Origin: Escherichia coli
GTDB lineage: Bacteria; Pseudomonadota; Gammaproteobacteria; Enterobacterales; Enterobacteriaceae
Length of the DNA: 64,000 nt
Reading direction: 5' to 3' (one strand)
Assembly (NCBI RefSeq): GCF_029227855.1
Contig: NZ_CP074356.1
Shown: piece by piece, positions 1-20,088 of the stretch
Position numbering within the stretch: the first letter of the stretch is position 1
Layout of the letters: each line of letters opens with the position of its first letter
Translations under genes and position numbers: made by a program
The notes under the pieces: generated by a model
Databases searched by the model: none
Seen by the model: the letters and a program-made list of their open reading frames with translations, nothing else
Told to the model about the DNA's origin: nothing

Positions 1-1
1 G

Positions 2-307
2 GTCGGCCTGCAGTTGGATTGTCGAGAACTGCCCGATTATCTACCGCTGTATCTGGAGTACTTAAGCGTACTACCGGACGATCAGGCGAAAGAAGGCTTG
101 CTCAACGTTGCGCCGATCCTCGCCCTGCTTGGCGGACGCTTAAAACAACGCGAGGCACCGTGGTACGCGTTATTTGACACCCTGTTGCAACTGGCAGGAA
201 GTACACTTTCAAGTGACAGTGTCACAAAACAGGTGAACAGTGAGGAGCGCGATGACACCCGCCAGGCTGGATGCGGTGTGGGAAGAGGAACAGGTGAAGT
301 TTATTGA
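2..307 (+). CDS. narW: Nitrate reductase 2 assembly chaperone NarW, 3' portion (5' end lies outside window); upstream frame terminates at 307
   Basis: Open frame from window edge with NarJ/NarW-like sequence (LPDYLPLYLEYLSVLPDD...); immediately upstream of narV. See finding on 3' frame discontinuity. Confidence 0.75.
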   Translation, partial: VGLQLDCRELPDYLPLYLEYLSVLPDDQAKEGLLNVAPILALLGGRLKQREAPWYALFDTLLQLAGSTLSSDSVTKQVNSEERDDTRQAGCGVGRGTGEVY

Positions 308-412
308 AGATAACGCCACGGCGTGTGACAGCTCGCCGCTTAATCAATATCAGCGACGCTTTAGCCAGAATGTCGCGCCGCAGTATGTCGACATCAGTGC
401 GGGAGGTGGGAA

Positions 413-1093
413 ATGATTCAGTATCTGAACGTCTTTTTTTATGATATCTACCCGTACATTTGTGCGACAGTGTTTTTCCTCGGCAGCTGGCTGCGCTACG
501 ACTACGGGCAGTATACCTGGCGCGCCTCCTCGAGTCAGATGCTCGATAAACGCGGGATGGTGATATGGTCGAATCTGTTCCATATCGGCATTTTGGGGAT
601 TTTCTTCGGGCACCTGTTCGGCATGTTAACGCCGCACTGGATGTACGCGTGGTTTCTGCCGGTGGCGGTAAAACAGCAGATGGCGATGGTGCTCGGTGGT
701 ATTTGCGGTGTATTGACGCTGATTGGCGGCGCAGGACTGCTGTGGCGCAGGCTGACAAATCAGCGCGTGCGTGCCACTTCCACTACGCCGGATATTATCA
801 TCATGATCATTTTGCTGATTCAGTGTCTGCTAGGGCTAAGTACCATACCGTTTTCAGCACAGTATCCTGATGGTAGCGAAATGATGAAGCTGGTGGGTTG
901 GGCGCAAAGCATTGTCACTTTCCGTGGTGGATCGTCAGAAATGCTTAACGGCGTAGCGTTCGTTTTCCGCCTGCATCTGGTGTTGGGAATGACCATCTTC
1001 CTGCTCTTCCCGTTCACCCGACTGGTGCATGTGTGGAGCGCGCCGTTTGAGTACTTTACTCGTCGGTATCAGATTGTGCGCTCGCGGCGATAA
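413..1093 (+). CDS. narV: Respiratory nitrate reductase 2 gamma subunit
   Basis: 226-aa multi-helix membrane protein recognised as NarV/NarI family; ATG start; position after narW. Confidence 0.9.
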
Positions 1094-1171
1094 TTTCACC
1101 CTGGCCGGATAGCCCTTCGCTCTCCGGCCACTTGCAGGCTATGATAGTTCTCCAGTCACAGGAGAACGTTA

Positions 1172-6309: not shown

Positions 6310-7407
6310 ATGGCTGAACGAAGAAAAACTCATCACTCATGGAAAACCCGCCGCAATATGGTTATTCGCGGCATGACGATTAGTTTGCCATGGTTTGCTT
6401 TTATCAATGTCAGTTTTGCATTGATAATTTTGCTGCGCCGTGTTCTGTTTAATGACCTTACTCCACCCTGGTTAAATGAAAAAAGCCTTATACATTCTAT
6501 TGATATATCTGCAACGGGTATTCTGCTGATTTGCAGTGGTTTACTACTCATCCCTCGGCAAAAAACATTACCTATCCAGGTGCTATTAGTTGCCCTGAGC
6601 CTGCTATGGTCATGGTGTAGTTATCACTTTATTGCGTACTGGACGCTGCAGTTTGCTTATCCACTATGTGTATTATTAATGCTTAGTGGCGTTGTCGCAA
6701 TTTATTTCCATACCCCATCATTGCTCGCATTTGTCATTCCCTTATGGTTCACCACTCCAATAGCGAGTCTTATGCTTAATCAACAGATCAATATTCATTT
6801 TGCTGTTGTATGGTGTATTTTTTCACTGGCGCTATATGGTGGGCGACTCATTTTGTTACGTTGGTTTGAAGAAGCATGGGTACAAAACAGTTATAACAAC
6901 CAGTTAATTAATCGCCTTGATGCATTAGCACATCGTGCTCCTTTAACTGGGATAGCAAACCGACGTGCAATGAACAGTATCTTACACGACACGATGGATA
7001 ACGGCGGGTCATTTGCTCTTATTATGCTGGATGTCGATTTTTTTAAACGTTACAACGACACTTACGGGCATCCTGCTGGGGATCGTTGTCTAATACAAGT
7101 TGCCGACGCTCTACAGCGTTCAACTCGCCAGTCGGAGGATGTTGTTGTCCGTTATGGTGGCGAAGAGTTTGCCATCATACTTTTTAATGCAACATTGCCG
7201 GAAGCAGAGACGGTAGCAGCCAGAGTGAAGCAAGAACTTAAACTGGCAGCTATCCCACATCAGGCATCTGCTGTTAATGCATTCGTTACGGTTAGTCAGG
7301 GGATTACCTGTTCTGCTCCCGCAAAAACGGCTGAACAAATTATTTCAGATGCCGACGCTGCGTTATACCGGGCGAAAGAAAGTGGGCGAAATCGATGGGC
7401 TTTATAA
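6310..7407 (+). CDS. Membrane-anchored diguanylate cyclase (GGDEF domain, intact GGEEF active site)
   Basis: 365-aa ORF; N-terminal half has multiple hydrophobic helices, C-terminal half has the RYGGEEF motif. Exact start uncertain (alternative ATG at 6358). Confidence 0.75.
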   Translation: MAERRKTHHSWKTRRNMVIRGMTISLPWFAFINVSFALIILLRRVLFNDLTPPWLNEKSLIHSIDISATGILLICSGLLLIPRQKTLPIQVLLVALSLLWSWCSYHFIAYWTLQFAYPLCVLLMLSGVVAIYFHTPSLLAFVIPLWFTTPIASLMLNQQINIHFAVVWCIFSLALYGGRLILLRWFEEAWVQNSYNNQLINRLDALAHRAPLTGIANRRAMNSILHDTMDNGGSFALIMLDVDFFKRYNDTYGHPAGDRCLIQVADALQRSTRQSEDVVVRYGGEEFAIILFNATLPEAETVAARVKQELKLAAIPHQASAVNAFVTVSQGITCSAPAKTAEQIISDADAALYRAKESGRNRWAL

Positions 7408-7480: not shown

Positions 7481-8032
7481 CTATCTTCTTAGCGATGTCT
7501 TTCTGGTATCACATTGGGTCGGTGCAATTATTTTTCCTTTAATACCCATTATGTTAAGAAATTCAGAAACAGCTGTAATCTCATTGTTTTTTTCATTCGT
7601 CTTGATCTTCCAAGGAATCTGACTGTGCATTATTGAGAACACACTAATAACGTGAATCGCTCCCTTGCGACGACTCTTGTCATAAGAGTACCGGAGCGTT
7701 TTTCCATCAATTGCAATGACGTCTTTATCATCTGAAGAATGGCAGTCAAGCATCCAGTTAATAAAGCACTCATGAAATTTTTCAGGACTGATACAGGATA
7801 CAACTCTGGCAATGGTATCGTGAACAGGAATACCATTATCAAAATCACCATATTGCTTCAAAAAATCGAGATGTGTTTCCCCAAAATCCTCTATATCTTC
7901 CCAGCCTTCTGCACCCGAAATAATGGCACAAATAGTCAACAGTAGAATATCCGATAATTTATGTTCCACTTTCCAGGCTTGTCTGTAATCGGGGGTAATA
8001 GAAATATGTTCCATCAATTTTTTAAATTCCAT
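7481..8032 (-). pseudogene. Truncated H-repeat-associated (ISAs1-family) transposase, N-terminal 5' fragment
   Basis: 183-aa ORF about 85 percent identical over roughly 170 aa to the N-terminus of the intact H-rpt ORF at 14075..15211, then diverges and terminates; shared upstream flank as well. Confidence 0.8.
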
Positions 8033-8617
8033 TTTGTTCTCCTTAATTATGTAAGGAGTATTTGATCATGTATAAGCAATAAAAAACAGCTTTAGGTAAT
8101 GAGGAATATCTCAATTTTTAAACATAAAATGCGAATTATTTAGTACAAAAAAGCAGCGTTACGTGATCTTTCCGTGGATCGTCAAATTGTTCGAGAGAAA
8201 ATACCAACATGATGGATTTTACTGTAAAAGTAATGTCGTAGTTTAAAAACTCATCATCCGGTAAAGCCTTGTGGGGCGTGGGCTTTCATACTTTTACCCT
8301 GATGTCTGCTATACGCCGGACACCCTTTACGTAGCATTCGGAATTCACCCGTAAATTTATCACGGCGGTATCACGAAACCTCCGGTTCTGATGCCGCTTA
8401 GGACTAACGACACGTCAACACAGGTTCGGGTTTATTCATTTCACTGTATCTCATATAATCTGAGCACTCCCCCTGCGCTCGCTACTATGACTCTTTACCA
8501 CAGCAACCGGGGTTGTTTGGGATCGGCTTTCAACAGCAGATCCCGGTGGCTATTGCAAGTAAGTCTACTTTCCACATCAGTGTTACTGACACAGAAAATA
8601 ATGAGTTATGATCCTTG

Positions 8618-9103
8618 TCATATTTTTAATATAGCCCCATGAGCTATAGGATCAAAACCTTCTAACCATGAGGTGTTTTTATCGAATAATGCACCTGTTA
8701 TATTTATATCGCCATATCTATCACATAATAAATTAGCGCCACATAAGTCAGCACCAGAAAAATTTGAATCTTTAACGTCTGCATTGCAAAAGGTTGAATT
8801 AGTTAATATAGCACCCTCAAAGTTTGCACCTATTGACCTTGAATTACTAAAGTCACTTCCAGTGAAATCTGAGTTATTAAGAATAGCGTTCATCAGAGCC
8901 GCATTGCGAAAGACAGCATTTCTAGTTGATGTATGTTGAATCATTACATTTCTTAAATGGGAATTTTCAAATTTCGCCCCATCAAGACAATAACCATTGA
9001 GGATGGCACGATGTAGATCCATCCCGCTAAAATCATATCCAGCAAGAGTGGTACTATCTATATCAAGAAATTTATTGGTTATTAAAAACGCGATTCTTAT
9101 CAT
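8618..9103 (-). CDS. Pentapeptide-repeat protein, predicted Rhs immunity protein (positional equivalent of K-12 ydcD)
   Basis: 161 aa; about 20 consecutive A(D/N)(L/F)xx-type pentapeptide repeats ([15 protein letters not shown] ... [15 protein letters not shown]); start codon overlaps the rhs stop in ATGA arrangement; AT-rich. Confidence 0.8.
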
Positions 9104-12100
9104 CTATTCCCCCAATCATCTAACTCCGGAAAAATTTGGCTAAACGGATATAGTGGTGCCGATAATGGACGCGTACCTGGCCGCTCAGGAGGAAGTTTAT
9201 CACATAACAGACCCGCAACCATCCTGTGATTACCATTAACAATCACATTCCCATCCATATCAACCGGTGGTGCTCCACTACCATCTTCCAGCATTTGTAC
9301 GTAGTGAGCTACTACGGGTACTGAGACTTTTTGTTGTACTGTCAACAAGGGACTGTTGGCCACAACCATCCTGATGTTTTCAGGTGTCGCAGGTAAACAT
9401 TTAGTCTTCTCTTGACTAAAGGTATCATCCCACAATTTTGTTAAACCCATCACTGCCTGTTGTCTGTATTTATCCATGGGGTCAGCAATCAACCAAGATG
9501 GACCTGACTGCTCTATGGAATCTTCTCCGGAGAGACCCAACGGATCTATCTTAGTAGTTGGATTCAATGGATACTGATACAGGTTCCATGCACCTCTTAG
9601 CCCAATGGGATCCTGGGTGATATACCGCCCCTGCAACGGGTCATAGTACCGGTTGCGGTTATAGTACAGCCCCGACTCCTCATCATACTGCTGCCCCGGC
9701 AGACGGTACGGCTGTTGCAGTTGCTGCGCGCTGGTTTCGCCCAGCAGGTTTCCCCACTCGTCATACTCCCCCTGCCACGCCGTTTCCCCTACCGGGCTGA
9801 TGAGCGCCTGCGGCAGCCCCCGGTGGTCGCAGTGGTAAAGATGAAGTGTCCTCTCCGGGATGTATTCCGCCTCCATCTGGTTTTTCATCTGTTCCGCCGT
9901 CAGCCCGCACTGCTGAAGCCATGCCTCACTCTCCGCACTCACCGCACCCGCGCGCAGTTCCCGCTCCAGCCTCCCCAGCATCACCGACAGCTCCGCCGGT
10001 AGCGTCACCCCCGTGTCCTCCTGCAACACCTCCGCCAGACTCCGGTGCCGCGCCTTCGCCTGTTCACCATTCTCTGTTTCGATTCTGATGAGCGGCGTGA
10101 AGCTCCCCGGCTGGTATACCGTCTGGATACGCGTGGTGCCGGTCTGTACCGTCGTCAGCCTGTCACCGTCCCACCCGTACCAGGTCTCCTCCGGTTTACG
10201 CGACAGCGACATCCACCCCGTCAGGTCACGCTCCCGCCGCCACACCCGTTTCCCCGTCCGGCGGCCCAGCGGGTCATAGAGGTAGCGGCTCTCCACCTGT
10301 GGTTCGCCGTGCTGTATCCGCGTGTAGAACACCAGGCGGTGCTGGCTGTCGTAATGGTAGTGGTGGGTCCGCTCGTCGTGCATCCGGATAACCCCTTCCG
10401 GGATACGATCCGTCTTCTCCGCCAGCCTGCCGTATTCATCGTGGCGGTAGACATAGTGCGCATCCTCCGCGATGCGGTTATCCGGCCACGCCGTGAAGGT
10501 GCTGTCCGGGTGCAGTTCCGGGTCCGGCAGCCGGTTTCCTGCCGGGTCCGTCGCATACGGGATATCGATATCCAGGTTCGCCGCCGTGGTGTGAACGCCC
10601 GTCAGTCTTCCCGTGTCGCTGTAACGGTACTTCCGGCTCTCCTGCGGGCCGCTGATGCGCACCAGTTGCCCGTTATCGTTCCACGTATACTCACGGTCAA
10701 GCTGCGGAAGGTTCAGGTGCCTGCTCCGGAGCTGCCCTGTGAGGGTGTACGCCATGGCCTGTTCGTACCCCGCTGTACTGCCCGCCCCGCCGAAGCTGCG
10801 GGCCGTCTCACGGTGCAGCCGGTCCCGCGTGTACTCGACCAGCGGCGTTCCGCCCAGCTTCATCCCCGCAAGATAACCGCTGCCATACGTCAGCCACTCC
10901 ACCGGCGGCAGACCGTCCGGCTCCTGACGGGTCGCCAGCCCCTGTTCGCTGTAGACGTGCCTCGTCTCATGCTCCCACAGCATCTCCCCCGTCTCCTGGT
11001 TCTCCACCGTCTGCCGTTCGCCCGTCAGGCGGCCTTTATCGTCATAGCCGTAGTGGACCGCCACACGGTGGCCTTCGCTCAGGTGGCTGATTTCTGTCAG
11101 CCAGCCGTGGTCGTCATACTGCCACTGCTCCGCCGGGTCGCCGTTCACCGTCCGGTGCGTGATGCGCCCGGCGTCATCGTAGTACCACTGCGTGACCTGC
11201 CCCTCATCCTCGCTGCGGATGAGCTGCCCTGTGGCGCTGTACCGGTAACGCTGTGTCCTGCCGTCAAAGCCGCGCTGCTCCGTCAGCCTGTCCACCGGGT
11301 CATACCGGAACGTGGACTGGCTGCCGTTCTCGTTGGTCAGCACGGTGATGCGCCCGGCGGCGTCATACTCCATGCTGCGCGTCAGTCCGCCCTGCGTGGT
11401 GCTGACGGCCTTTCCCCACGCATCATACTGTGTCTCACTCCGGCTGCCGTTCGGGGCAATGATAGCGGTGAGGTCGCCTGCGGCGCTGTACTCATAACGG
11501 GTTTCACGTCCCTGCGCATCCTTCTGACTGACCAGTTGACCACGCGGGTTATAACTGCTGTAAGTGCTGATGCCTTCCTCCCGGTGAACCGCCGTCCTCT
11601 GACCGTACCGGTCGTATTCATACCGCGTCGTGTACCCTGAACAGTCCGTAAATGCCTGAAGCTGACCGTACCGGTTTCGCGTTATTCTCCGCCTCACCCC
11701 GGTTCCGTCTTCCACCGCACAGGGCAGGCCACTGCGGGAAGAATCATAAAACCAGCGCGTAATGTTACCGTTGCGCGAGACCTCTTCCGCCAGCCTGCCC
11801 TGACGGTCATATTTCCGGCTGCGGCGCAGCCCGTCCGGGTACGTCACTGACGTCAGTTGCAACTGGTTGTTGTAACCATACCGTACCGTCCTGCCGTCCG
11901 GCAGTATCACTGAAGTCAGCTTTCCCGACGCCATATGCAGCCGGTACTCCGTCCGCCGTCCCGCCGCATCCGTCTGCGCCTTCAGCCTCCCCGCCTCATC
12001 ATACTCGCTGCGGGTGATGCTCCCGTCCCCATGCTCCTTCTTCACCACCCGCTTCAGGCCGCCCTCGCCCTCCGTGTACAGCACCTCCCGCCGGTTCAGG

Positions 12101-13311
12101 CTGTCCGTGATGGTCACGCGGTCCTGCCCGTACTCAAAGCGGTAGTCCAGCCCCTCCGGGTTGACCTGCTCCGTCACCCGACCGGTATCATCATACCGGT
12201 AGCGGCTCTCCGGCCTCCCCGCATAATGGTGCGCCACCATCCGCCCGGCGTGCTCCGCATCATAAGTAAACCCGCGCACCTGCGTCCCGCTGCGGTCATA
12301 CACCGCCCGCAGTTCTCCGCTGGCCGTGTACGTGTAGCGCGCCAGCGGCGCAGTCGGCAGTTCATCCAGGTATGCCAGGTCGTGTGTCAGCCATACCGCC
12401 TCCAGCCGGATACCGTTATCGGCACCGTACTCTGTACCGGTGGGCAGCGTGTCGGGGAAAACCTGAGAAGAGGAAACAGAACGGGGACTGGCCGGAGAAG
12501 ATAAAGAAGAGGCGCGCTGTTTACGGAAGGCTTTCGCCCGCTGCGCCTGTGTGGTCAGCGCCAGATGAAAACGGCGGCCCGCGCCGTCCGTCACCCCCGT
12601 CACCGCGCCCGCCGCTTCCCCCTCTGCCGCCCGGTGGAAGGCCAGCGTCCGCCCGAAGCTGTCCACCACGCCCGTCAGCACCCGGTATGCGGGCGGCTCC
12701 GGCGGCAGCACCTCGTCCGCCTCCGGCACCCGCTCCGGCCAGCCGAGTATCCACCACGGCCCCTGAAGGCTGTTTGTCGCCAGGTACACATGCGGGCTTA
12801 AGCGGAGACTCTCCGGCAGCACCTGCCAGAGCGCGCTTAGCGGCTGCGAACTGTGCTGCTCCGCCACCCCGCCCCTTGCCAGCCAGAACGACTCGCTGCG
12901 GCTGTAGCTTATCTCGCCGGGAAACAGCGGCTCAAAGTGAATGCTCCTGCCGCCACTGTCGTTGAGTATCAGTTCCCGCTCATGAACCTGTAAGCGGATA
13001 TCGAAGGGCGCTTTCCAGCCGGGACCAAACACCCCCACCGGCGCGGGTGTTCTGGTCCGGTAGCTGCTGTAGGCGCGGGAAAGAATAAACGGCAACGGGC
13101 CGGGCAGCGCAAGATCCGTCTCGCCCGGCAGCACCTTCGCACCCAGTAGCGGGTTCACCGGGTTACCCTTCTGCTCCTCCACCGGGCTGTTGGGACACAC
13201 CGAGCAGGCCACTCCCGTCGGCGCACCTATCAGCACCCCCGCTGAACCCTGCACAATATCCAGTCCCTTGCGGGTCATATCGCCCTGTCGCGCCGCCGGT
13301 TTTCCGCTCAT
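9100..13311 (-). CDS. Rhs polymorphic toxin, full length (PAAR-like N-terminus, YD-repeat core, variable C-terminal tip with ParB-like motif)
   Basis: 1403 aa; N-terminus [11 protein letters not shown]; long GC-rich YD-repeat core; core-end DPxGL motif (..DPIGL..KIDPLGL) followed by an AT-rich roughly 143-aa tip (about 9100..9531). Confidence 0.9.
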
Positions 13312-14097: not shown

Positions 14098-15211
14098 GGA
14101 CTGACGCCAGATAGTTTCTGTCCATGGCTGCTTTTCGCATCTTACGTCTTAACCCTGCCTTGAATACCTTATCATTCGTTAAAATATTAATAGCGATGTG
14201 CCGTATCCCTGAAAATAATTCTGCGGCGTTTCCTCTTCCTATTTTGCAGTCGTCTTCATTCATTACCACGTCCAGACGCCAGTGCAGCTTATTCTCCACG
14301 TGCCAGTGGTTTCGGATTGCTGTGGCGAACTTCTCTGCGGTTAAATCAGCAGAACTGATATAATATCTGACCGTCATTTCTGGCTCTTTCTTTTGTTCTG
14401 CTATTATTGACCGAAAGGAGACTGCCACGCATAATTTCTTCAGTCCTTTCCATTCAAACATTAAATCAATAAGTTCATCAGGGACATCACAAACAATGTG
14501 AAGACGGATTTCTTCTCTGCCGTGACTCTTTTCACTAATTGCGTAACTGTCATGCTCTGGATTATTTAATTCTTTCAGTGGGAATTTTTCCTCAAAGGCT
14601 TTATTTAGCCGCCCCTGGTTTCCTTTTACAGCGAATAAATAATCACCTCCCTGTTTTTGTATCTTCTCTGCAATATCTTTCTGGCAACCCATCGCATCAG
14701 TTGTGATGATTTTTCCTTTAATATCCAGCATGTTAAGAAGTTCAGGGATAGCTGTAATTTCATTTGATTTCTCATCCGTCCTGATCTGTCCGATGACCAG
14801 ACTGTGCATTGTTGAGAACGCACTAATGACATGAATCGCTCCCTTGCGGCGACTCTTGTCATAAGGATGCCGGAGTGTTTTTCCATCAATTGCGATGACG
14901 TCTTTATCAGCTGAAGAATGGCAGTCACGCATCCAGTTAATAAAGCACTCGTGAAATTTTGCAGGACTGATACAGGATACAACTCTGGCAATGGTATCGT
15001 GAACAGGAATACCATTTTCAAAATCACCATATTGCTTCAAAAAATCGAGATGTGTTTCCCCAAAATCCTCTATATCTTCCCAGCATTCTGCACCAAAAAT
15101 AACGGCACAAATAGTCAACAGTAGAATATCCGACAATTTATGTTCCACTTTCCAGGCTTGTCTGTAATCGGGGATAATAGAAATATGTTCCATCAATTTT
15201 TTAAGTTCCAT
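14075..15211 (-). CDS. H-repeat-associated protein / ISAs1-family transposase (intact)
   Basis: 378 aa, recognised as E. coli H-rpt (YdcC/YhhI-like) protein. Confidence 0.9.
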
Positions 15212-15487
15212 TTTGTTCTCCTTAATTATGTAAGGAGTATTTGATCATGTATACGCAATAAAAAACAGCTTTAGGTAATAAGGAATATCTCAATTTTTAA
15301 ACATAAAATGCGAATTATTTAGTACAAAAAGTGAACTTCTGATGATCTTTCCCTGCCCATTGGGTTCATTAAGATCAAGAATAATGGGAATATGCTCAAG
15401 AAGACTTTGAATGTTCACCAGACGTCCTTTTCTAATATATTTAATTATTTGGCGATTAAATTTTAATCAAATCAACAAGGTAAAACC

Positions 15488-15557: not shown

Positions 15558-15932
15558 TTACTCTAATGGTTTTATTAATTGTAAATTTTTAAATGTCATG
15601 CTTAATAAGCCATCAGAAAAATAAAGAAAAAATTTATATATCCTTTTGTTTTTTAATTTCTTTATATACCCATTACTTATATTACCTGACTTGTGATTAT
15701 CGATTAACTCAGCAGAATCCATAGCGAACACTAAATCATCTACATCAGAAAATTCAACTATCATTTTTTCCCTAATGTTCTCATTTTTATAAATGTCAAT
15801 AAATAACGTCATGTTAAAATGAGATTCTTTGAATGTCGTTTTTACTTCTAACAAAACCCCATCATGCCAGTCAATTGAACTCACAATGTCAAAATCGCTC
15901 ATTATATAATCTCCATTATCCGTTTTAATCAT
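15558..15932 (-). CDS. Predicted immunity protein for Rhs copy-2 toxin (hypothetical, AT-rich)
   Basis: Start chosen at MIKTDNGDY so that ATG overlaps the toxin stop (ATGA coupling); very AT-rich; no recognisable domain. Longer alternative start at 15965. Confidence 0.6.
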
Positions 15933-18900
15933 GGAGTAACAACGTTTGCAGGTATTGACCACCAAAGAGGTGGTGCAAGTGAAGGTATAAATCGAATCAC
16001 TCTATATATAACATACCCTGCGCCAATTGTAGCACCAGTTGCAAGAGCCGCATCAGTAGTTGATAGCCCAGAGGTTTTGCATGACAGATCTTTACTTGGT
16101 TCTGGCTCGAAACCATATTTTTTTGCACATTTCTTAATGCTATTTGGTGCTGATGAGTAATCCTCACCATGGGACATACCTCCAAATTCCCCCATTACAC
16201 CACTCCCATTTTTACACTCCCAATGCAAATGTCTTCCGTCACCAACAGCATCGCCATCTATTCGGATTCGACAACCTTTACCACAGTCCTTCCATTTTCC
16301 TGAAGTATGAGCTAATCCCAATGGATCAATCCATTGCACAGGATTGTTCATAACATAACTGTACGGGTTTATTCCCCCCGCCAGCCCTATCGGGTCCTGG
16401 ATGATATACCGCCCCTGCAACGGATCGTAGTACCGGTGACGGTTATAATACAGCCCCGACTCCTCATCGTGTTGCTGCCCTGGCAGACGGTACGGCTGGT
16501 GCAGGTGATGCGGGTTTTCCTCATTCAGCAGGTTCCCCACTCATCATACTCCCCGCTCCACGCCGTATTGCCGTCTTCGCTGATGAGCGCCAGCGGCAGG
16601 CCCCGGTGGTCGCAGTGGTAAAGATGAACTTTTCGCGCCGGTGTGTATTCCGGCTCCACCTGTCTGGCCAGTTGCTCCACCGTCAGCCCGCACTGCGCAA
16701 GCCACGCCCGGCTTTCGTTACTCACGCGGTCTGCCCGGATTTCTCCCTCCAGCCTGTCCAGCAGCCGCACCAGTTCAGCCGGGAACACCACACCGTGCCC
16801 GTCCTCACTCCCTTCCGACTGTAACTTCTCCGCCAGGCTGCGGCGCTGCGCTTTCTCCCGTTCGCCGTTCTCTGTTTCGATGCGGATGAGTGGCGTGAAG
16901 CTTCCCGGCTCGTATACCGTCTGGATACGTGTGGTGTCAGTCTGCACCGTCGTCAGCCTGTCGCCGTCCCACCCGTACCATGTCTCCTCCGGTTTACGCG
17001 ACAGCGACATCCACCCCGTCAGGTCACGCTCCCGCCGCCATACCCGTTTCGCCATTCGCCGTCCCAGCGGGTCGTAGAGGTAGCGGCTCTCGACCAGTGG
17101 CTCGCCATGCTGTATCCGCGTGTAGAACACCAGGCGGTGCTGGCTGTCGTAGTGGTAGTGGTGGGTCCGCTCGTCGTCCGTCCGTATCACACCCGCCGGG
17201 ATGCGGTCCGTCTTCTCTGTCAGCCTGCCGTATTCATCGTGGCGGTAGACATAGTGCGCATCCTCCGCGATGCGGTTATCCGGCCACGCCGTGAGTGTAC
17301 TGTCCGGGTGCAGCTCCGGGTCCGGCAGCCGGTTGCCCGCCGGGTCCGTGGCATACGGGATGCGGATGTCCAGGTCCGGTGCGAGGGTGCGTACACTCGC
17401 CAGCCTGCCCGTGGCACTGTAGCCGTATTCCCGCGTCTGTCGCGGGCCGCTGATGCGCACAAGGTCGCCGTTGTCATTCCACCCGTAGTCACGGTCATAC
17501 ACCAGGCTGTTCAGGTGCTGGCTCTGTAACTGGCCTGCAGGGGTGTATGTGCTGGTCAGTTCGTATGCGGCATTACTGCCTGCCATGCTGCCAAAGCTGC
17601 GCACCGTCTCCCGGTGCAGCCTGTCCCGCGTATACTCGACCCGCGGCGTCCCGCCCAGCTTCATTCCCGCCAGGTAACCGCTGCCATAGGTCAGCCACTC
17701 CACCGGCGGCAGGCTGTCCGGCGTGACGCGGTTTGCCAGCCCCTGTTCGTTGTATGCCTGTTTCGTCTCATGCTGCCACAGCAGTTCCCCCGTCTCCGGG
17801 TTCTTCACCGTCTGGCGCTCACTGGTCAGACGGCCTTTATCGTCATAGCCGTAGTGGACCGCCACACGGTGGCCTTCACTGGTATGGCTGAGGGTGGTTA
17901 ACCACCCGTGCTCATCATACTGCCACTGCTCTGCCGGGTCGCCGTTCACCGTCCGGTGCGTGATGCGGTCTGCTTCATCGTAGTACCACTGCGTGACCTG
18001 CCCCTCATCCTCGCTGCGGATGAGCTGCCCTGTGGCGCTGTACCGGTAACGCTGTGTCCTGCCATCAAAGCCGCGCTGCTCCGTCAGGCGGTCCAGCACA
18101 TCGTAGGTAAATTCACTCCGGCTGCCGTTCTCGTTGGTCAGCGTGGTGACACGTCCTGCCGCGTCATACTCCATACTGCGCGTCAGCCCGCCCTGCGTGG
18201 TGCTGACCGCTTTTCCCCACGCATCGTACTGTGTCTCGCTCCGGTTGCCGTCCGGGGTGATAACGGCAGTCAGGTCGCCTGCGGCGTTGTACTCATACTG
18301 CGTTTCACGGCCCTGTGCGTCTTTCACCGAGGTTAACCGGCCACGGTTGTCATAGCGGCGGTAACGGCTGATACCTTCCTCGCGGTGGACCGCCGTCATC
18401 TGACCAAAGCGGTCGTATTCATAGCGGGTCTGGTAGCCCGAGCAGTCGGTGAACGCCAGCAACTGACCGTAGCGGCTCCAGGTCATCTGCCGGGTGCTGC
18501 CCGTCGCATCCATTGTCGTCGCCGGTAACTCACTGTACGCGTCATCGTAGCGGTAGCGTACTGTCTCCCCGCTGCGCGATGTCTCCGTTACCAGCCTGCC
18601 CGGTTCATCATATGCCCGGCGGCTCTCCAGCCCGTCCGGGGACACCACTGCCGTCACCTGGTTCCCGTCGTTATAGTAAAATTTCGTCTCCCGCCCGTCC
18701 GGTGTGGTGATGTCCGTGATATCGCCTGACACCACATTCAGACCGTACTCTGTCCGCCGTCCCGCCGCGTCCGTCTGCGCCGTAAGCCTTCCTGCCGCGT
18801 CATACCCACTGTGCGTGGCGCTGCCGTCCGCCAGTTCTTTTTTCACCACCCGCCTCAGCCCGGCCCCGCCTTCTGTATGCAGCACCTCACGCCGGTTCAG

Positions 18901-20088
18901 GCTGTCCGTGACGGTGATGCGGTCCTGCTCATACTGGTAGCGGTAACTCAGGCCTGCCGGGTTCAGCTGCTCCACCACCCGCCCCGCATCGTCGTAGCGG
19001 TAGCGCATCTCCGGCCTTCCCGCGTAACGGTGCGCCACCATCCGGCCCGGGTGCTGCGCGTCATACGTGAAAGCGCGCACCTGCGTATTGCTGCGGTCAT
19101 ATACCGCCAGCAGTTCACCGGCTTCCGTATACGTGTACCGCGCCAGTGGCGCACCGGGCAGATTCTCCGGGTATGCCGGGTCATGCATCAGCCACACCGC
19201 TGAAAGACGGATGCCCCTGTCGGGGCCGTATTCCGTACCGGGCAGTGTGTCGGGGAACGCTGAGGCTGAGAGAGGGCGGGAACGGTCAGAAGAAGATAGC
19301 GAAGAGGTGCGGGCCTCTTCCGCCCGCTGCGCCTGCGTGGTCAGCACCAGACGGAACTTCCGCCCGGCACCGTCCGTCACGCCGGTGATTTCCCCGGCCA
19401 GGTCACCGGCGGCCTCACGCCGGTACGTCAGCGTCTGCCCGAAGCGGTCCGCCAGCCCGGTAAGCACCCGGTACGGCGGCAGCGGCGCTGGCAGTACGTC
19501 CTCAGTGCCCGGCACCCGCTCTGACCACCCCAGTATCCACCACGGTCCCTGTGCGCTGTTGGTCGCCAGGTAAAGATGCGGGCTTAACCGGATATCCGGC
19601 GGCAGCGACGGCCACAGCCGTGCCAGCGTGTGGCCGTCCGGCTGCGCTGCCTTACCACCGCGAACCAGCCACATTGACTCGCTGCGGCTGTACACCGCCT
19701 CCCCCGGCAGCAGCGGCTCAAAGTGAATGCTCCGCCCGCCGTTGTCGTTGAGTATCAGTCCGTCATCACGTATCTGTAAGCGGATATCAGAAGGCGCTTT
19801 CCAGCCGGGGCCAAAAATCCCCACCGGCGCAGGCGTCTTCGTCCGGTAGCTGCTGTAGGTGCGGGAGAGAATGAACGGCAGCGGGCCGGGCAGCGCAAGG
19901 TCCGTCTCGCCGGGCAGCACCTTCGCCCCCAGCAGCGGATTTACCGGGTTGCCCGAAGTCATCCCGCCCGGACACACCGAGCACGCCACGCCGGTGGACG
20001 CGCCAATTCTTACACCTGCCGAACCCTGGACAATGGGACCGCCATACTGAGTCATATCTCCCTGACGCGCCGCTGGTTTTCCGCTCAT
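15929..20088 (-). pseudogene. Rhs polymorphic toxin copy 2, interrupted by a 1-nt frameshift between core (16525..20088) and DPxGL/toxin tip (15929..16540)
   Basis: 1187-aa core ORF ends ..EYDEWGTC while a separate 203-aa ORF carries the core end ([38 protein letters not shown]) and a Cys/His-rich tip. Rhs copy 1 has tttcccca where copy 2 has ttcccca (around 16531..16539). Confidence 0.8.

Follow-up and report, generated by a model that had tools for sequence, protein, structure and literature searches.

In Escherichia coli, the chaperones NarJ and NarW each support nitrate reductase A as well as nitrate reductase Z, and the role of NarW can be taken over by NarJ (PMC10609526). NarJ contacts NarG at two sites, namely the N-terminus and a core site that is required for cofactor insertion (PMC10609526). 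An engineered E. coli NarJ that lacks the last 50 residues, referred to as NarJT, equals full-length NarJ in its binding of the NarG(1-15) peptide (PMC3501500). When we searched the literature for the publication that describes PDB 8jzd/8jzc, and for in vivo results with NarJT, nothing beyond this last study turned up (PMC3501500).

The two paralogues are 57% identical overall. Over NarW residues 176-196 (RDDTRQALDAVWEEEQVKF..), 18 of the 21 positions are identical between them, and a second block of the C-terminal tail, QRRF..VAPQY, is also common to both. Judged from these sequences, the near-identical tail block implies that the tail has a conserved function.

Here we compare with these systems the gene narW, which encodes the molybdenum-cofactor assembly chaperone of nitrate reductase Z and lies at the beginning of a 64,000-nt stretch of E. 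coli DNA (contig NZ_CP074356.1, referred to below as the window). The gene enters the window at about NarW codon 94, and frame 2 is open from the window start (2..307, plus strand), with a translation that ends in ..RDDTRQAGCGVGRGTGEVY (..SEERDDTRQAGCGVGRGTGEVY) at a TGA at 305..307. Frame 3 is open from 237, after a preceding stop at 234..236, contains a GTG at 240 and an ATG at 252, and terminates at 414..416, where its stop codon overlaps the ATG of narV at 413..415 (ATGA). An earlier note, made from the sequence alone, had described a NarW-like frame ending at 305..307 and a second frame that opens at 237 and runs into an ATGA overlap with narV, and our translation and reading of the sequence agree with it on both counts.

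Both frames match the NarW equivalog NF011628 (NCBIfam), frame 2 at profile positions 94-182 (E 2.3e-52, 178 bits) and frame 3 at profile positions 181-231 (E 6.2e-30, 104.6 bits). The curated cut-off of this model is 410 bits, and no single full-length polypeptide above it is encoded in the window; the family is instead represented by two fragments in different frames, codons 1-93 lying outside the window. Because two abutting pieces of one family occupy two frames, the frame discontinuity is confirmed as real, far beyond what chance would give.

The earlier note offered two explanations for this arrangement, of which the first, which puts the native C-terminus of NarW in the second frame and a small indel in this copy, is borne out by the narW of E. 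coli strain JNEC-KY178, which is identical save for two extra bases. According to the second, the sequence is in its native state, with a downstream frame and an ATGA overlap that arose by coincidence. We found no point in favour of this second explanation, and its probability is close to nil: the supposedly coincidental frame is itself NarW, matching profile positions 181-231 at an E-value of 6.2e-30, and every relative has a continuous NarW of 231 aa ending in ..AGGGK. None of the reference proteins ends in ..GEVY, the ending by which the earlier note would have recognised the early stop as native. The native-state reading is therefore refuted by the NF011628 matches together with the alignment to the intact narW of JNEC-KY178.

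Base-level alignment identified the lesion as a deletion of CA (equivalently AC) between window positions 266 and 267, a few bases 3' of the interval 252..262 in which the earlier note had looked for the shift. Its placement at 267|268 is equally valid, since the reference reads GG-CA-CTGG. Across the junction, CCAGG[CA]CTGG in the relatives has become CCAGGCTGG in the window, the intact form being CCAGGCACTGG; JNEC-KY178 reads CGCCAGGCACTGGATG where the window reads CGCCAGGCTGGATG, and the two are otherwise identical over 1,100 nt. The two bases are present in JNEC-KY178, in strains GMF054 and CFSAN018748, and in eight sibling contigs. Directly 5' of the deletion is a Dcm methylation motif, CCAGG (262..266).

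The deletion shifts the last 49 codons of narW to the +1 frame, and translation ends at 305-307. The 5' segment (2..307, plus strand) thus keeps the original frame and is native through Ala182 (codon 266-268). From residue 183, the first that differs from intact NarW, it continues with 12 out-of-frame residues (GCGVGRGTGEVY) up to the premature TGA. The 3' segment (267..416, plus strand) stands in the +1 frame and encodes residues 183-231 of native NarW (LDAVWEEEQVKF...ISAGGGK), and its TGA at 414-416 overlaps the narV ATG. A frame-breaking indel relative to intact orthologues is hence combined with a premature stop, which is how a frameshift pseudogene is recognised. Compared with the E. coli narW of JNEC-KY178 (NF011628; WP_033870869.1), the 416 nt in the window are identical save two bases and have the same place in the operon, upstream of narV with an ATGA junction, but the window frame is split after codon 182 and the predicted product has 194 aa, not 231.

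We then asked how the deletion is distributed among relatives. In a megablast search with window positions 1-1100, 5,391 of 5,426 complete E. coli genomes proved to have the locus, and all best matches aligned the 1,100 query bases to 1,102 genome bases, annotated as narW and narI. The closest match, JNEC-KY178, has an intact narW (WP_033870869.1) whose 231-aa product ends in ..ISAGGGK and whose reading frame has a 4-nt overlap with the gamma-subunit gene. A 72-nt query centred on the junction had no match of >=99% identity in the 5,426 complete genomes; its best matches were all at 97.3%, which equals a 2-nt gap. Exact-product look-ups in an index of 153 billion genes gave the same picture, as the 194-aa truncated NarW, the 54-aa ORF that starts at the ATG, and the 58-aa ORF that starts at the GTG were all absent from it, while intact NarW, which served as positive control, is on record there in 289 blocks.

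The window is a near-clone of JNEC-KY178 (NZ_AP045174.1, 2580435..2644435), from which it differs by eight SNPs and two indels over 64 kb, and JNEC-KY178 is the only complete genome that matches its first 25 kb end to end. GMF054 and CFSAN018748 served as outgroups to polarise the differences between the two: the narW deletion and six SNPs proved private to the window, and two SNPs and the loss of one base in an RHS gene proved private to JNEC-KY178. A clone-specific variant of YddE, encoded right beside narV, retrieved 16 sibling contigs. The junction was intact in all eight sibling loci that were read (YddE-retrieved contigs and two retrieved with intact NarW), and three of these loci are otherwise identical to the window over 2,100 nt save for the 2-nt gap. 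The lesion is a derived singleton, private within a very young clone and seen in no other E. coli examined. As the sibling contigs carry intact narW, they provide no independent support for the deletion.

A singleton of this kind may be either a mutation of the isolate or an error in its consensus sequence. That the narW deletion is a genuine and recent frameshift mutation, private to this isolate within the clone, is the reading we favour, although we place it only slightly on the probable side. The other reading, a serious one that falls somewhat short of probable, is an artefact of assembly or base-calling, by which the isolate has an intact narW and two bases beside the Dcm-methylated CCAGG were dropped from the consensus, for example in a long-read assembly that lacked methylation-aware polishing. 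Nanopore consensus sequences are known to retain errors at methylated motifs. The deletion abuts such a motif (262-266), and although the window has 144 CCWGG sites, only 1.1-1.6% of its positions lie in or adjoin one. The allele is also distributed as an error would be, being absent from the 5,426 complete genomes, the eight sibling contigs and the exact-product index. Moreover, an RHS gene of JNEC-KY178 is frameshifted by the loss of a single base, itself suspicious (CCCCGCCCC -> CCCCCCCC), so that consensus-type indels do occur in assemblies of this clone.

Other properties of the window speak for a clean assembly and hence for a genuine mutation. The narW deletion is its sole private indel in 64 kb. 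The remaining 143 CCWGG sites show no differences, and the other six private differences are all >37 nt from any CCWGG site. The deletion does not lie in a homopolymer, and 2-base losses outside homopolymers are not the commonest type of sequencing error. At the other indel, it is the window that has the intact RHS allele and JNEC-KY178 that is the odd one, so the window allele is correct where that of its sister is defective. Among the coding SNPs, four are private to the window, three of them synonymous and one a replacement (E1174V in an RHS protein); both of those private to JNEC-KY178 are synonymous. As these SNPs are mostly synonymous, their pattern suggests real, selection-filtered variation rather than random error.

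What a genuine deletion would do to NarW can be predicted by reconstructing its product, for which we took codons 1-93 from JNEC-KY178. The reconstructed protein has 194 aa (182 native and 12 aberrant residues) compared with 231 in intact NarW, the last 49 native residues being lost. The Pfam domain PF02613 (Nitrate_red_del) covers residues 36-151 in the intact protein and in the 194-aa product alike (49.1 bits versus a cut-off of 22.2), and the narJ model TIGR00684 reaches to about NarW residue 154; the NarW tail alone matched no Pfam domain. Truncated NarW is therefore predicted to keep the whole conserved core of the NarJ family and to lose the C-terminal tail, including the LDAVWEEEQVKF block that it has in common with NarJ. 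The deletion cuts exactly at the start of this first tail block conserved between NarJ and NarW.

The closest experimental likeness to such a protein is NarJT. Residue 186 of NarJ aligns to residue 179 of NarW and the window keeps NarW 1-182, so that the truncation falls three residues from the end point of NarJT. The likeness has its limits, as NarJT is a His-tagged laboratory construct of a 57%-identical paralogue, whereas the window product would end in 12 aberrant residues. The E. coli NarJ construct that was crystallised (PDB 8jzd, a 192-residue chain) likewise aligns only to NarW residues 4-177. The conserved NarJ/NarW tail (window 267..413, corresponding to NarW 183-231) was omitted from both NarJT and PDB 8jzd.

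By analogy with NarJT, the truncated chaperone would probably still bind the N-terminus of NarZ, and any tail-dependent step would probably be lost. Since the tail blocks are strongly conserved between NarJ and NarW, the loss of the tail may be more damaging than the comparison with NarJT suggests. It could also be supposed that this is a natural NarJT-like NarW, in which the core (1-182) suffices to mature nitrate reductase Z, or does so together with a 54-aa tail translated on its own, but we regard this as improbable. The lesion may be tolerated because nitrate reductase Z is a secondary enzyme and NarJ, to judge from the paralogue, can mature both nitrate reductases. The expected outcome is an ordinary, recent mutation that is either pseudogenising or hypomorphic.

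The 54-aa tail would be the product of an ORF that owes its frame to the deletion. A Shine-Dalgarno-like GAGGAG (242-247) lies 4 nt before an ATG (252-254) on the plus strand, and the deletion brings this ATG in frame with the NarW tail, which gives a potential 54-aa ORF at 252..416 that ends in the native ATGA junction; the peptide MTPARLDAVWEEEQVK would be a marker of its predicted product. In principle, this ORF could express the tail separately and restore the coupling to narV, and this spacing and the restored ATGA coupling are what might be said for a functional split gene, in which the core (1-182) and the 54-aa tail cooperate. However, the GAGGAG-ATG pair is also present, out of frame, in the intact genes and is therefore fortuitous, and the tail alone has no Pfam domain match. 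A related possibility is recoding, in which a +1 shift yields full-length NarW, and for which the rare codon AGA at 284-286, within the overlap zone, might be cited; but the conserved LDAVWEEEQ block would be scrambled by any shift that occurred 3' of 267. Neither proposal is helped by conservation, since the arrangement occurs in none of the relatives examined (5,426 complete genomes and eight of eight sibling contigs, all unshifted). Such an absence from the relatives examined means that the split arrangement has not been maintained by selection, and we consider a functional split gene or recoding very improbable. Inspection of 237..307 for slippery or stimulatory motifs revealed no prfB-like CUU UGA and no X XXY YYZ heptamer, the context of the stop being UAU UGA A. 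Programmed ribosomal frameshifting was thus rejected, as there is neither conservation among the relatives examined nor a known +1 slippery motif in 237..307.

Downstream, narV (413..1093, plus strand) encodes an intact gamma subunit of nitrate reductase Z of 226 aa, which matches TIGR00351 narI over its full length (E 3.2e-128). The operon context is that of narZ-narY-narW-narV with stop-start overlap, narZ and narY(H) being found upstream in syntenic JNEC-KY178, beyond the window edge, and narV having its ATGA overlap with the frame-3 stop. Since ribosomes that translate narW now terminate 105 nt short of narV, stop-start coupling through the ATGA would be lost. Translation of narV would then depend on its own Shine-Dalgarno site, a strong, near-ideal GGAGGT (402..407, plus strand) located 5 nt upstream of the ATG, and is expected to drop at most moderately. 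Occlusion of this ribosome-binding site by RNA structure was considered and rejected, since the fold of 300-450 is unremarkable (z = 0.20, no exceptional structure).

Whether it is a mutation or a consensus error, the narW lesion is an ordinary kind of event in a well-known, functionally redundant gene, and no new kind of element. Similar to other frameshift pseudogenes of E. coli (e.g., the 'frameshifted' RHS core genes of the sister genome), it is a small coding indel in a non-essential gene and is restricted in lineage; it differs from them in being private to one sequence, in sparing the core that defines the family, and in affecting stop-start coupling. An annotation of this sequence should present narW as one frameshifted gene, with the remark that it is a pseudogene or possibly a sequencing error, and not as two genes. 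Should the deletion prove real, the isolate would offer a ready-made tail-less NarW mutant that mimics NarJT and could be used to probe the conserved tail. This tail has been removed from every construct used for structural work, and its role is a narrow question. A strong phenotype is not to be expected, since nitrate reductase Z is the minor enzyme and the work of NarW can be done by NarJ.

The comparison with relatives also turned up differences elsewhere in the window. Transversions account for six of the eight SNPs that separate it from JNEC-KY178, a proportion that is unusual for natural variation in E. coli, yet five of the six coding SNPs are synonymous. One of the private changes, a G>A at position 6355, falls in the translation-initiation region of a GGDEF-domain (diguanylate cyclase) gene, 3 nt before its start codon, and could alter the expression of that gene. 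The first 25 kb of the window are only 78% shared with other relatives of the phylogroup.

Two RHS core genes are present on the minus strand. The first (9100..13311) is intact in the window, encoding 1,403 aa with no internal stop; its E1174V substitution results from the SNP at 9791, and the 1,403-aa protein with this substitution has no exact match on record in the gene index. The same gene is 'frameshifted' in JNEC-KY178, where a G is missing at 12871, and GMF054 agrees with the window at this position; the indel looks like a consensus error or a private mutation of the JNEC-KY178 record. The second RHS core gene (about 15929..20088), upstream of vgrG, is frameshifted in the window and in JNEC-KY178 alike, with longest open stretches of 1,188 and 203 codons. 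Compared with the intact gene of CFSAN018748, it has indels near 16532 and 17640-17654: a short T run has lost one base (AGGTTTCCCC -> AGGTTCCCC), and 15 nt have been inserted in frame. As its lesion is common to two assemblies, this gene is probably a genuine pseudogene of the clone.

The two RHS cores (9599-11674 and 16383-18475) share about 82% identity, and two remnants of an ISAs1-family transposase (7482-8151 and 14660-15330) are 91% identical. These internal repeats flank a T6SS vgrG-RHS island that is variable between strains.
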